Source of the DNA: Desulfobacterales bacterium
GTDB lineage: Bacteria > Desulfobacterota > Desulfobacteria > Desulfobacterales > G963662235
Assembly: GCA_963662235.1 (NCBI GenBank)
Contig: OY759308.1
Location: 1,398,109-1,462,108, forward strand
Length of the DNA: 64,000 bases
Direction: 5' to 3'
In this document: piece after piece, positions 12,487-60,261 of the stretch
Layout: every line of letters begins with the position of its first letter
Position numbering within the stretch: position 1 is the first letter of the stretch
The notes under the pieces: generated by a model
The model's database searches: none
Seen by the model: the letters and a program-made list of their open reading frames with translations, nothing else
Told to the model about the DNA's origin: nothing
Made by a program: the position numbers and the translations under genes

Positions 12487-12688
12487 GAGCTTTGCACATA
12501 GCCCTATTTTTGCTTTGGTTTTATGGTGAAGTAGTATGTTTAATACGTCGAACCCAAAACAAAAGAGAGCGTAAGTCTTTATAAGGGTTTTCTTAGGTTT
12601 TTCGCCTTTCGGCGAACCCCCTTAGTCCCCCTTAAAAGGGGGAAAAGGTAAAAAAATCTCACGAAAAAACATTATGAGCAAAGGTCTC
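12487..12688 (-). mobile_element. MITE-like element, copy 1 (variant with two GC-rich hairpins replacing the usual AT hairpin module)
   Basis: Termini are gagctttgcacatagc...cattatgagcaaaggtctc and the core is acgtcgaacccaaaacaaaag..agagcgtaagtctttataa. Unique hairpins are ttcgcctttcggcgaa (12601..12616) and cccccttaaaaggggg (12627..12642). Confidence 0.85.
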
Positions 12689-12758
12689 AAATGTATAAAC
12701 CTTAAACATTATAGTTTATATTGAGTGCTTATATAAGCTATTTTTTAAGAGAATATAA

Positions 12759-14045
12759 TTAAAAATGGTTTCTTAAAATTATGGTGTCGTTTCTATCTGG
12801 TCCCAAAGATATTATATCAATTTTACATAAACTAAGCTCTTCTATTCTTTTTATATATTTTATAGCATTTTGTGGGAGTTCATCAAAACTTTTGCATTTT
12901 GAAATATCGCTTTCAAATCCTGCCATAGTTTCATATATAGGCTTGCATTTTGAAAGAACGTTTACATCAGAAGGTAAATTGTTAATTGTTTCGCCATTAT
13001 AATCGTATGCTACACATATTTTAATCTCTTTTGAAAAAGATAAAACATCAAGTTTTGTTAGAACTAATCCTGTAAGACTATTTAATTTTATTGCGTTTTT
13101 TATCAAAACCATATCGAGCCATCCGCATCTTCTCCTCCTGTTTGTTGTTGCTCCAAATTCGTGTCCTATTTCTTGCAACAAATCGCCTGTTTCATCAAAA
13201 AGCTCTGTAGGAAAAGGTCCTGAACCCACTCTTGTTGTGTACGCTTTAACAATCCCAATTATTTCTGATATCGCTTTTATACCTACACCAGAACCAGAAG
13301 AAGCACTTGCGGCAACAGTATTTGAAGAGGTTACAAAAGGATATGTTCCGTGGTCTATATCAAGATGTGTTCCTTGTGCTCCTTCAAATAGTATTTTCCT
13401 ATCTGCCTTTATATCTTCATAAAGTTCTGTTGAGATATCTTTTACAAAGGGTTTTAAGAATTTTGCATACTCTTTATACTCTTTAAAAATATCTTCCGCA
13501 TTTAAAGGTGTATCGTTAAAAAACTTTTCAATATAAAAGTTTTTATCTTTTACGATAGAAAATAGTTTCTCTTTAAAAATATCTTCATTTATAAACTCTA
13601 TGGCTCTTATTCCTCTTCTTGTTACTTTATCTTCATAGGCAGGACCTATACCTTTGCCTGTAGTGCCTATCTTTTTGTCACTCTTTTTAATTTCTCGTAG
13701 TTCGTCTATTTTTTGATGATAGGGCATTATAATATGAGTTTTTTCGCTTATTTTGAGATTTTCTGGTGAAATTTTTATCCCTTTTTCTTTAAAGAAATTT
13801 ATTTCTTCAATTAAAACTTTTACATCGAGTACAACGCCATTTCCTATAAAACATTTTTTATTTCGTAATATACCTGATGGGATAAGATGACTTACAAACT
13901 TTTCACCATTAACTATGATAGTATGACCAGCATTATTTCCCCCTTGAAATCTTACTACCGAGTCTGCTTGCTCTGATAAGATATCAACAAGTTTTCCTTT
14001 TCCTTCATCTCCCCATTGTGTTCCGAGTATTACTACACTTTTCAT
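12759..14045 (-). CDS. purA: Adenylosuccinate synthase
   Basis: [12 protein letters not shown]-loop, GGNNAGHT and [13 protein letters not shown]. Confidence 0.96.
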
Positions 14046-14095
14046 TTTTTTCTCTCATTTTTTAATGTTTAAAGAATCAAAACATCTTCTAACTC

Positions 14096-15106
14096 TTAAA
14101 GATGACTTGCAACTATTTTACTAAGCTCCATTAATCTATAAACGTAGCCTTTTTCATTATCGTGCCATATTCCTATTTTTAAAATATCTTTCCCAACCTT
14201 TTTTGTAAAAAAAGCATCAAAAATAGCGGAAAATTTAGAGCCTTTATAGTCTACAGATACAAGCTCTTTGTCATTATAATCTAAAATATAATTTTTTTCC
14301 GCTTCTTTTTTAAAAAGTTCATTAACATCATCAATAGTTACATTCTTTTTTTTTATTTTTAAAACAATATCTATTAATGAAACATTAGGAGTAGGAACTC
14401 TTAGCGAGTATCCTGTTATTTTATTTTTTAATTCGGGCATAATGTCTGAAACAGTTTTAATAATTCCTGTAGTTGTAGGAATGATTGACGGAATAGCAGA
14501 ACGACCAAGCCTTAAGTCGCTATCGTTGCCTCCATCTAATAATTTTTGGTCAATATTATAGGGATGTATATTTGTTATAGTAAAACAATCTATACCATAA
14601 TTTTTGATTAAGATAGATAAAACAGGTATTAGGCAATTTGCAGTACAAGAAGAGGCTGAAATTATATTATCTTTTTTAGTGTTATAACTTTTTTCATTAA
14701 AACCTATAACTATTGTATTGTCTGCATTTGTACAAGGAGAAGAAACGATAACTTTTTTTACTCCTTTATCCAAATAATAAGACAAAGTATCTTTGCTTAA
14801 AAACTTTCCTGTGCAATCAATAACTATATCTGTTTTATTCTTTTGCCACTCTATTTTTTTAAGGGTAGCCTCTTTTGAGAAAGAAATTTTTTCATCGTTT
14901 ATAATTATGTTTTTTTTATCGTAAGTTATATCAAGGTCGCTTGTACCATATGTAGAATCGTACTTTAAAAGGTAAGCGATTGTTTCTATAGAGTTTAAAT
15001 CGTTTATGTGAACTACTTTAAGGGAGGTTTCTTTGTATATTGTTTTGAGTAGACTTCTGCCGATTCTACCAAGACCGTTTATACCTATATTAATAGATTG
15101 TGACAT
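14096..15106 (-). CDS. gap: Glyceraldehyde-3-phosphate dehydrogenase (type I family)
   Basis: INGLGRIGRSL NAD-binding motif and active-site SSCTANCL. Confidence 0.88.
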   Translation of the reverse strand: MSQSINIGINGLGRIGRSLLKTIYKETSLKVVHINDLNSIETIAYLLKYDSTYGTSDLDITYDKKNIIINDEKISFSKEATLKKIEWQKNKTDIVIDCTGKFLSKDTLSYYLDKGVKKVIVSSPCTNADNTIVIGFNEKSYNTKKDNIISASSCTANCLIPVLSILIKNYGIDCFTITNIHPYNIDQKLLDGGNDSDLRLGRSAIPSIIPTTTGIIKTVSDIMPELKNKITGYSLRVPTPNVSLIDIVLKIKKKNVTIDDVNELFKKEAEKNYILDYNDKELVSVDYKGSKFSAIFDAFFTKKVGKDILKIGIWHDNEKGYVYRLMELSKIVASHL

Positions 15107-15116
15107 AATTACATAA

Positions 15117-58536: not shown

Positions 58537-59302
58537 TGATTCTCCTCAAAAATTCTTTTGAAAAATTTAAATATGCATTAGCACCTAAAGAAGTAGGTGC
58601 ATAGCTGAATATACTTTCTGAAAAACTTGGAGCTTCACTCAAGCGTACATTTCTTGGAATTTTAGTTTTGAATACCAAATCTTTAAAATGTTTAGTAGCT
58701 TCATTCATTACCTGTTCGGAAAGATTTGTCCTATTATCAAACATAGTAAGTAAAATTCCTAAAATTTTTAAATCTTTATTCATCCCTTTTTTTATAAGCT
58801 GCATAGTTTTCAAAAGCTGAGTTAAGCCTTCAAGAGCATAAAATTCACTTTGCAGAGGTATTAAAACATAACGCGAGGCAACCATAGAATTAATAGTTAA
58901 AAAACCTAAAGCGGGGGGGCAATCGATTATAATGTATTGATATTTGTCGATACAAGACTCAAGCAGTTTTTTTAGTATCTCTTCCCTACCTTGAACATCA
59001 ACAACTTCAATCTCAAAACCAGCAAGATCCATTTCAGAAGAAATTATATCCAAATTAGGAACATTAGAAGAAAGAATAACATCTTTAATGTCTGCTTGCC
59101 CAGACATAGCATGATATAGATTGTTTTCTACACTGCTTTTATCTATACCTATCCCTGTAGTAGTATTAGCTTGTGGGTCACAATCTATAAGTAGTACTTT
59201 TGTCTTAGGCGAAGCTAAAGCTACAGATAAATTAATAGCCGTTGTTGTTTTCCCAACCCCACCCTTTTGATTGGCTACAGATACTGTTATTGCTTTTTCC
59301 AA
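58517..59302 (-). CDS. parA: Chromosome partitioning ATPase ParA/Soj
   Basis: Deviant Walker A NQKGGVGKTTTAINL, with DCPP. Confidence 0.95.
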   Translation of the reverse strand: MEKAITVSVANQKGGVGKTTTAINLSVALASPKTKVLLIDCDPQANTTTGIGIDKSSVENNLYHAMSGQADIKDVILSSNVPNLDIISSEMDLAGFEIEVVDVQGREEILKKLLESCIDKYQYIIIDCPPALGFLTINSMVASRYVLIPLQSEFYALEGLTQLLKTMQLIKKGMNKDLKILGILLTMFDNRTNLSEQVMNEATKHFKDLVFKTKIPRNVRLSEAPSFSESIFSYAPTSLGANAYLNFSKEFLRRINAKEKE

Positions 59303-59325
59303 TATAGATTTTCCTTATAAAAAAT

Positions 59326-59994
59326 TTAAAGCGACATTTTACAATGTTTACAAATTTTAGCTCTCTGTTTTATTATTTCAGCACAAAAAGGACATTCTCT
59401 TGTAAAATGTCTTTTATGTAACTTTTCAACAGCCTTATCTACTTCTTTTTGTATTAACTCATTCGGAAATTTTTTATTTAAAAGATAAGGTAAAGCTTCC
59501 TCTCCTCCTATATCGCCTACCATTTCAGCAGCTTTAAGACGAACTCTTCCTGGTTTTTGAGGGTCTAATAAAAACTTTAATATCTCATCCCATGCTTTTT
59601 GGATATAAAAGTCTGTAAGTGCCGAAAAACTAAATTTAAGCTCTTCTTTGAAACTTTCTTCCAACTTTTTTGCTTCATCATCATAAATTTGACCTTTTCC
59701 GCCTTCTTCACTAAAAACAGACATAAAATCAAAATTTTGAGTTCCAGGGTAGTTAATACATCTATAAGAAGCTTTAAAAGCATAATTTTGTTCTATATTG
59801 TCCCAGCCACTTTTAAAAGGTGGACACTCATCATTAAAGCAAACAAAAAGAAATGGAACTCCCCAACCAAGACCGTCACTAACTGCTACTTGAGGTACTT
59901 CCCATAACGACATCTCTTTCCCGCAATGAGGGCATTTGGGCTTCTCTCCTGACATAACCTCATTAAAAACCTGTTCTTTACTTTGAATTGTCAT
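59326..59994 (-). CDS. Hypothetical protein with N- and C-terminal zinc ribbons and a HEAT-like segment
   Basis: CPHCGKEM...CFNDECPPF, then RLKAAEMVGDIGGEEALPYLL, then CPFCAEIIKQRAKICKHCK. Confidence 0.4.
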   Translation of the reverse strand: MTIQSKEQVFNEVMSGEKPKCPHCGKEMSLWEVPQVAVSDGLGWGVPFLFVCFNDECPPFKSGWDNIEQNYAFKASYRCINYPGTQNFDFMSVFSEEGGKGQIYDDEAKKLEESFKEELKFSFSALTDFYIQKAWDEILKFLLDPQKPGRVRLKAAEMVGDIGGEEALPYLLNKKFPNELIQKEVDKAVEKLHKRHFTRECPFCAEIIKQRAKICKHCKMSL

Positions 59995-60065
59995 AAATAA
60001 AATCCATTTAGAGCTTGATAATATAGTTACCTAAAAAGCTCTATCCTCTCTATTAATAAGTTTTT

Positions 60066-60261
60066 GAGACCTTTGCACATAATATTTTTTATGAAAAAAA
60101 TAGTGGTTTTTTGTAAATTATCAACTTTTGGCAATTTCACAAAAACAGCTAAAACCCTTATGAAGACTAACGCTCTCTTTTGCTTTTGTTTTGGGTTCGA
60201 CGTATAAAAATACTACTTCACCACAAAACAAAAGCAAAATAAAGCTATGTGCAAAGGTCTC
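60066..60261 (+). mobile_element. MITE-like element, copy 10
   Basis: Perfect termini gagacctttgcacataat...agctatgtgcaaaggtctc. GTTTTT occurs on both flanks (60060..60065 and 60262..60267). Confidence 0.92.

Follow-up and report, generated by a model that had tools for sequence, protein, structure and literature searches.

The Correia elements (CREE/NEMIS) of Neisseria are non-coding repeats of about 100-155 bp that end in inverted repeats and number in the hundreds in a genome of about 2 Mb. They sit at gene boundaries, form long hairpins, occur in full and in internally deleted forms, duplicate TA, and carry a terminal repeat of 26 bp that begins TATAGTGGATT... RUP, in Streptococcus pneumoniae, likewise has a TA duplication and a link to an IS630-type element; ERIC/IRU in enterobacteria, BOX in S. 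pneumoniae and RPE in Rickettsia show no regular 6-bp duplication. In a Cardinium endosymbiont, the ISCca4-derived miniature inverted-repeat transposable elements (MITEs) such as MITECca01 are tied by their inverted repeats to the parental ISCca4 in the same genome (PMC9769881). Here we analyse a family of short inverted-repeat elements that recurs along 64 kb of a bacterial chromosome (the window, in which all positions count from the first letter), and which we regard as very probably a family of MITEs. The window was compared with a relative of its host, a 1.60-Mb contig from an ENA assembly whose protein variants are more than 90% identical to those of the window. Seven loci of this contig were used, about 111 kb in all, and their syntenic DNA is about 97% identical to the window; they are cited below by L numbers with coordinates of their own.

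Inserted copies and their target sites

The basic unit of the family is about 197 bp long and non-coding, and it contains two palindromic modules besides a conserved core, CTTATAAAGACTTACGCTCTCTTT, that is near-invariant among copies. Its terminal inverted repeats are perfect over 16 bp (GAGACCTTTGCACATA / TATGTGCAAAGGTCTC), beyond which the two ends diverge (AAT... versus GCT...). All six reading frames of the element are broken by stops, and gene calling in the relative placed no gene inside a copy. When both strands of the window are scanned for the 15-mer GAGACCTTTGCACAT with at most two mismatches, 19 matches are found, against 0.07 expected from dinucleotide-preserving shuffles. Searches by BLAST with two copies, and by nhmmer with a profile made from the first alignment, located eight full copies (181-280 bp), which align end to end. 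The 15-mer also marks four termini-only short forms (30-56 bp) and one solo end (Table 1).

Most of this inventory had been drawn up in a first-pass annotation of the window's letters. Its eight full copies are all real, with two starts to be moved (12487 to 12485, and 53218 to 53183), and its four short forms, at 25233 (the outer element), 28375, 34218 and 39601, are present, as is the solo end that it placed near 40368 and that we find at 40366-40417. The inverted termini, the core, both internal hairpins and the occurrence of copies in both orientations were likewise found as described. Two statements were too broad. Not all copies are intergenic: the one at 34218 lies inside the 3' end of a glycoside-hydrolase gene, and several others give stop or start codons to neighbouring open reading frames (ORFs). 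That almost every longer spacer has been colonised holds for window 12-60 kb and fails for window 1-12 kb, where the first 12.4 kb contain no copy, and for a copy-free 20-kb island of the relative.

The flanks of the elements carry the case for transposition. Perfect 6-bp direct repeats were found at five of the twelve window elements, those that start at 25257, 34218, 47161, 52213 and 60066, exactly as the first-pass annotation had claimed. Identical 6-mers at the same spacing occur by chance at 0.135% of window positions (0.00135 per site), so that five in twelve far exceeds chance. A sixth perfect duplication, GTATTA, flanks a copy in the relative (L026 13568). The targets are A/T-rich: AAAAAC three times (once as GTTTTT on the plus strand), AAAACA, AAAATA and GTATTA.

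An empty site that retains one 6-mer had been proposed beforehand as a test of insertion, and the relative has such a site at the 34218 locus. There it reads ...AATAAATAAAAAAAAACTTTATTTTG..., with a single AAAAAC, where the window has AAAAAC, a 43-bp element and AAAAAC again. Copies have also landed in one another. The window shows this at 25257, where a copy with a TGTTTT duplication of its own interrupts an older short form. In the relative, the hairpin-2 loop of an old, degenerate copy has received a young full one (L026 13568-13764, flanked by GTATTA). Two further differences between the strains count in favour of mobility: the relative has a 280-bp copy (L021 3061-3339) with no counterpart in the window, and the copy at 47161 differs in length between the two. 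Subfamilies and degenerate old copies are both present, and most copies occupy the same position in both strains.

The distribution of copies also separates older from newer DNA. One 20-kb stretch of the relative (L023) contains no copies at all, while the core genome has about one full copy per 10 kb; most of this stretch is missing from the window, it encodes glycosylation genes and a prophage-like module, and it is a recently and horizontally acquired island. We also note that, relative to window 36981-38880, loci L021 and L023 hold near plsB both a large island of glycosylation genes and a prophage-like module with primase, integrase and CI repressor.

It is because of the flanking repeats, the empty site, the nested insertions and the age structure that we favour a non-autonomous transposon with a 6-bp target-site duplication and A/T-rich targets, which is also how the first-pass annotation had read the family. 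Several observations weigh against this. An intact duplication is missing at seven of the twelve window elements. The 280-bp copy found only in the relative (L021 3061-3339) is not a simple insertion: it stands in a rearranged stretch and lacks a duplication. A degenerate right-half copy, again only in the relative (L020 9031-9185, in the region 8990-9230 that corresponds to window 18916-18953), has the variant terminus ATTATTCAAAGCTCTC and, on its flanks, a duplication of about 35 bp (CTTTGAATAAATTTGCAATTTTTAAAATT...), which is in turn similar to the variant terminus; simple transposition does not explain this arrangement. No transposase or autonomous element with the family termini was found in the 64-kb window or among the genes called in the roughly 111 kb of the relative. 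Finally, the 43-bp form at 34218 is polymorphic between the strains, and a double-stranded element of 43 bp is very short for synapsis of both ends. The mobility seen at 34218 may perhaps be that of a full copy which inserted and then suffered an internal deletion, or it may reflect precise excision in the relative.

Table 1. Elements of the family in the window, with one orthologue from the relative
Element	Position	Strand	Remarks
Full copy, 204 bp	12485..12688	-	Hairpin 1 replaced by G/C-rich insert; termini AAGAGCTTTGCACAT / GAGACCTTTGCTCAT; no intact flanking duplication
Orthologue of the 12485 copy in the relative	L020 15459-15650		
Older termini-only short form	25233..25566	+	About 49 bp without the inner copy and one TGTTTT; split by the 25257 insertion
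280-bp copy nested in the short form	25257..25536	-	Perfect TGTTTT duplication; second nested element at ~25302-25379
Short form, 56 bp	28375..28430	+	Degenerate termini GAGACTTTTGTTCAT ... ATGTGAAAAGTTCTC; also in the relative
Termini-only form, 43 bp	34218..34260	+	AAAAAC at 34212-34217 and 34261-34266; absent from the relative
Degenerate remnant, 30 bp	39601..39630	.	Two termini only, AAGACTTTTACATAT / TTATGCAAATGTCTC
Solo left end, ~50 bp	40366..40417	+	Minus strand gives ATG and first four codons of PilW-like gene
Full copy, 181 bp	45921..46101	-	16-bp internal deletion in hairpin 2; same G-to-A at position 10 of both termini
280-bp copy	47161..47440	-	Perfect TATTTT duplication; nested element at ~47207-47284; 197-bp orthologue in the relative
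Full copy, 194 bp	50936..51129	+	Between GHMP-kinase gene and tRNA-Gln; TGA stop of upstream ORF spans terminal-repeat junction
Full copy, 197 bp	52213..52409	+	Between prs and L25 gene; perfect AAAAAC duplication
Full-length copy	53183..53379	-	Between L25 gene and pth; far end degenerate, small GAGAGCTT...AAGCTCTC palindrome
Full copy, 196 bp, reference orientation	60066..60261	+	Perfect GTTTTT duplication; between divergent genes

Proposed enzymes, hairpins and composite forms

How might such copies move? True terminal inverted repeats and a duplication fixed at 6 bp lead us to infer a DDE-type transposase acting in trans. Such an enzyme, encoded elsewhere, would bind both termini and cut with a 6-bp stagger in A/T-rich targets, and repair of the staggered cuts would leave the 6-bp duplication. 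The ISfinder tables give the ISDol1 group, IS481, IS982 and IS21 among the insertion sequences that can produce 6 bp. A further example is ISPfe2 of Paracoccus ferrooxidans (IS1634 family), an autonomous element of 1.9 kb that has a gene for a transposase, 6-bp direct repeats and short terminal repeats of 13/13 bp (PMC3281130). ISPfe2 and the window family agree in duplication length, which makes the IS1634 family only a lead.

Two sequences were considered as possible partners and set aside. A fragment with a DUF772 transposase domain (L024), the only DDE-related match, belongs to a third genome, of 37% GC (guanine plus cytosine), which has no family copies. A 514-residue ORF of the relative (L019 2011-3555) has no Pfam match and looks like a membrane protein by sequence; it is deleted in the window, where short remnants stand at 54033-54044.

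Under the transposon reading the family has been active in several waves, which left old degenerate copies with variant termini and young copies inserted into older ones, and at least one insertion, or excision, has happened since the strains, now about 97% identical, split. The 280-bp copies represent a subfamily that spread after it had taken up a second, small inverted-repeat element. We see that these copies are 197-bp elements with such a second element inside hairpin 2. It is about 71-77 bp long (window 25302-25379 and 47207-47284), has inverted ends of its own, CCC(T/A)GTGAAATA, and lies between GGTTCA and GGTAAA, whereas copies that it does not interrupt have GGTGAA there; in the window it was never found free-standing. 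At the 47161 locus the copy measures 280 bp in the window and 197 bp in the relative, where it has the canonical GGTGAA and where the remainder shares locus-specific variants. Judged from these sequences, gene conversion between copies, or an independent site-specific insertion, fits this difference better than a simple deletion would.

The short forms raise a similar question of descent. Each of the four has a different internal junction, which favours independent internal deletions over the spread of one short master by transposition. At 30-56 bp, the termini-only forms most likely derive from longer copies by internal deletion.

The elements are strongly palindromic and their short forms are simple hairpins, which invites the idea that they were moved as single-stranded DNA by a Y1/HUH enzyme, as palindromes of the REP/RAYT or IS200/IS605-derived type, and not by a DDE transposase. 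The same genome even contains a second, REP-like family of 22-bp palindromes that, like the present one, has a GAGAC start. REP/BIME and IS200/IS605-derived sequences are palindromes of 20-40 bp with a GTAG-type head or subterminal hairpins. REP and IS200/IS605-type elements have no transposon-type terminal inverted repeats and make no target duplication. The window family has true terminal inverted repeats and no GTAG head, six of its copies (counting the one in the relative) have perfect 6-bp duplications, and its empty site retains one 6-mer. We consider single-strand transfer very improbable.

The 22-bp family deserves a description of its own. It consists of the perfect palindrome GAGACGCAARATYTTGCGTCTC, usually in a GTA...TAC frame and sometimes with tandem half-repeats TAAGATTTTGCGTCTCT behind it. 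The window has seven copies against none expected (196-217, 629-650, 2116-2137, 5655-5676, 5788-5809, 9624-9645 and 10847-10868), all of them within its first 11 kb, a part without main-family copies, and there are further copies in the relative (L020 942 and 17978, L021 3515, L026 1024). It looks REP-like by its GTAG head, and its GAGAC start is also that of the main-family termini.

Hairpins also suggest RNA, and the first-pass annotation had offered a structured-RNA family as an alternative. On such a reading the copies would be non-coding RNA genes or cis-regulatory RNA elements, spread by duplication, whose hairpins are under selection as RNA. One copy does fold far better than its shuffles, the core CTTATAAAGACTTACGCTCTCTTT hardly varies, and some base pairs have changed on both sides, such as a T-A to G-C change in hairpin 2 of L020 9083-9176 and the hairpin-1 variant GTAAAAC/GTTTTTAC. 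The folding is equally good on both strands (z = -9.4 and -9.1), as expected of DNA palindromes. To look at covariation we aligned ten independent copies and took the pairs from the minimum-free-energy structure of one of them, on which 87% of the alignment cells pair. The covariation score is 0.053, compared with 0.057 in shuffled alignments, and three pairs have changed on both sides where 1.7 are expected, a number reached in 117 of 500 shuffles; ten copies give such comparisons low power. The hairpin-1 variant, which had been put down as a possible compensatory change, is also present in L026 13568-13764 and is better described as a subfamily marker that was inherited once. At the Rfam gathering threshold no element has a match, tRNA-Gln being the only model to pass in the window; with E up to 10 the matches are at chance level, the best on an element being Phe_leader with 29 bits against a threshold of 55. 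Relative to the genes beside them the copies face both ways, and an RNA gene family would leave the target duplications, the empty site and the nested insertions unexplained. Selection on RNA structure is unsupported by these data, and we hold an RNA family to be very improbable.

Neighbouring genes and host genome

The insertions have touched the ends of several genes. The reverse complement of the terminal repeat starts ATGTGCAAAGGT and contains an ATG. In the solo repeat at 40366-40417 this ATG is the sole available start of a PilW-like prepilin gene (window 39631-40380, minus strand), whose product would begin MCKG|YTIIE. The four codons MCKG come from the repeat and adjoin the G|YTIIE processing motif on its upstream side; the N_methyl motif covers residues 2-24. 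The called start of thiE, at 47175, is also the ATG of a terminal repeat. At 34218 the insertion has shortened the glycoside-hydrolase gene, from 336 codons in the relative to 326 in the window, and two other ORFs have stop codons in or at element ends. On this sequence evidence it is possible that terminal repeats have been co-opted at gene starts. The ATG also has a practical side: because the terminal repeat contains it, the repeats mislead gene callers.

Could such effects be what keeps the family? The elements could be former transposons that are now maintained mainly for a role at gene boundaries, as directional terminators (a long hairpin beside a T-run that stems from the target), as sites of RNA processing or as sources of start and stop codons. 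Besides the ATGs of the PilW-like gene and the thiE ORF, the A/T-run targets would fit this: on one of the strands the closing stem is then followed by a T-run. The three copies with an intact duplication that belong to co-directional gene pairs (34218, 47161, 52213) all have this T-run on the strand that does not encode the genes, which preserves read-through. Most copies are, moreover, conserved in position between the two strains. Three co-directional cases have no statistical weight, a simple promoter and terminator scan did not flag the elements, and at 97% identity positional conservation is expected without selection. We think it rather unlikely that host function is what now mainly maintains the copies.

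More demanding is the joint proposition that the transposase is of an undescribed or unusual kind with no recognisable partner insertion sequence in the genome, that the 43-bp units are themselves mobile, and that the host has co-opted the termini as start-codon or prepilin-leader modules and the hairpins with their T-runs as terminators. Taken as a whole this seems to us quite improbable. If its second part were true, the 43-bp units would be among the smallest mobile DNA units, and either ends only about 10 bp apart would have to synapse or the intermediate would have to be a folded hairpin.

The window, at about 29% GC, is part of a bacterial chromosome and contains ordinary housekeeping genes: purA, typA, a plsB-like gene, ccsB, thiE, the gene for the alpha subunit of indolepyruvate oxidoreductase, rpoN, lptC, the PilW-like gene and a prs-L25-pth cluster. 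Window proteins are found on one contig of 2.13 Mb. Beyond the relative, the next-nearest Prs homologues are only about 66% identical, and those with names belong to metagenome-assembled genomes of Desulfobacterales or Thermodesulfobacteriota. The host is a deep-branching, uncultured, low-GC bacterium with a small genome.

Apart from the repeats, the comparison revealed other differences in gene content. The rarA-typA segment (window 6048-9108) has a GC content of 34-38%, against about 29% around it, and is 89% identical to the third genome mentioned above (ENA ERZ21862645, locus L024; 37% GC), where its flanks are unrelated; this suggests, from sequence comparison, that rarA and typA were replaced horizontally. 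Window 1-5360 contains strain-specific genes typical of defence islands (RhuM, a YgjP-like protein, a HATPase_c_3 protein and a C5 cytosine methylase), and its counterpart in the relative (L026 5970-9990) has a Metallophos/nSTAND NTPase of 1008 residues instead. A ParE/Phd toxin-antitoxin pair of the relative (L020 16926-17655) is absent at window 11202-11209, and an AAA-ATPase/PDDEXK_9 gene of 557 codons, intact at window 26836-28135, is cut to 122 in the relative (L020 577-583).

Comparison with described repeat families

The first-pass annotation did not recognise the family as a described one, and our searches bear this out. Rfam, plasmids and phages gave no family match, BLASTN of the consensus against plasmids and phages returning only AT-rich chance matches with E of at least 0.2. 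Scans of JGI metagenomes with a core pattern and with a terminus pattern found nothing, and viral contigs gave four chance matches only. In a genome collection searched with the pattern GAGACCTTTGCACATARY, the matches listed include 12 single chance ones, which fall in unrelated taxa and are not accompanied by another end in inverted orientation. The terminal sequence was not found in the full text of the literature searched, nor was anything relevant on bacterial MITEs with a 6-bp duplication. We call the family new because of the lack of a match in Rfam, the plasmid and phage collections, the metagenome scans and this literature, and because its termini and duplication length are unlike those of Correia and RUP.

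Such a family has some practical consequences. The repeats break short-read assemblies, and the Logan contigs that contain purA both end in a family copy. The copies distinguish old from recently acquired DNA and offer markers for strain typing. More broadly, the family illustrates, within a small genome, transposition that is still going on, copies nested in copies, exchange of sequence among them and, possibly, co-option at gene starts.

Among the described systems, the Correia elements share with the window family a short non-coding body, inverted-repeat ends, a place at gene boundaries, long hairpins, and full as well as deleted forms. They differ in host lineage and in having a 26-bp terminal repeat and a TA duplication instead of GAGACCTTTGCACATA and 6 bp, and we found no sequence similarity between the two. 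RUP, BOX, ERIC/IRU and RPE are likewise small, intergenic, inverted-repeat or palindromic sequences with many copies per genome, and none has the termini or the core of the window family. MITECca01 is alike in being a newly described, widespread MITE of a small, repeat-rich, AT-rich bacterial genome; it has a parental insertion sequence, whereas none was found for the window family in the DNA examined, and the sequences are unrelated. Of the features that generally mark bacterial MITEs, four are found here: a length below about 300-500 bp with no coding capacity, terminal inverted repeats, a duplication of fixed length and an empty-site polymorphism. For the fifth, an autonomous insertion sequence that has the same termini and supplies the transposase, the 64-kb window and about 111 kb of the relative gave no candidate. 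What the window contains is a previously undescribed MITE family for which the evidence is unusually clean. It reveals no new kind of system: the element is of an ordinary kind, and its copy density is like that of known MITE-rich genomes.

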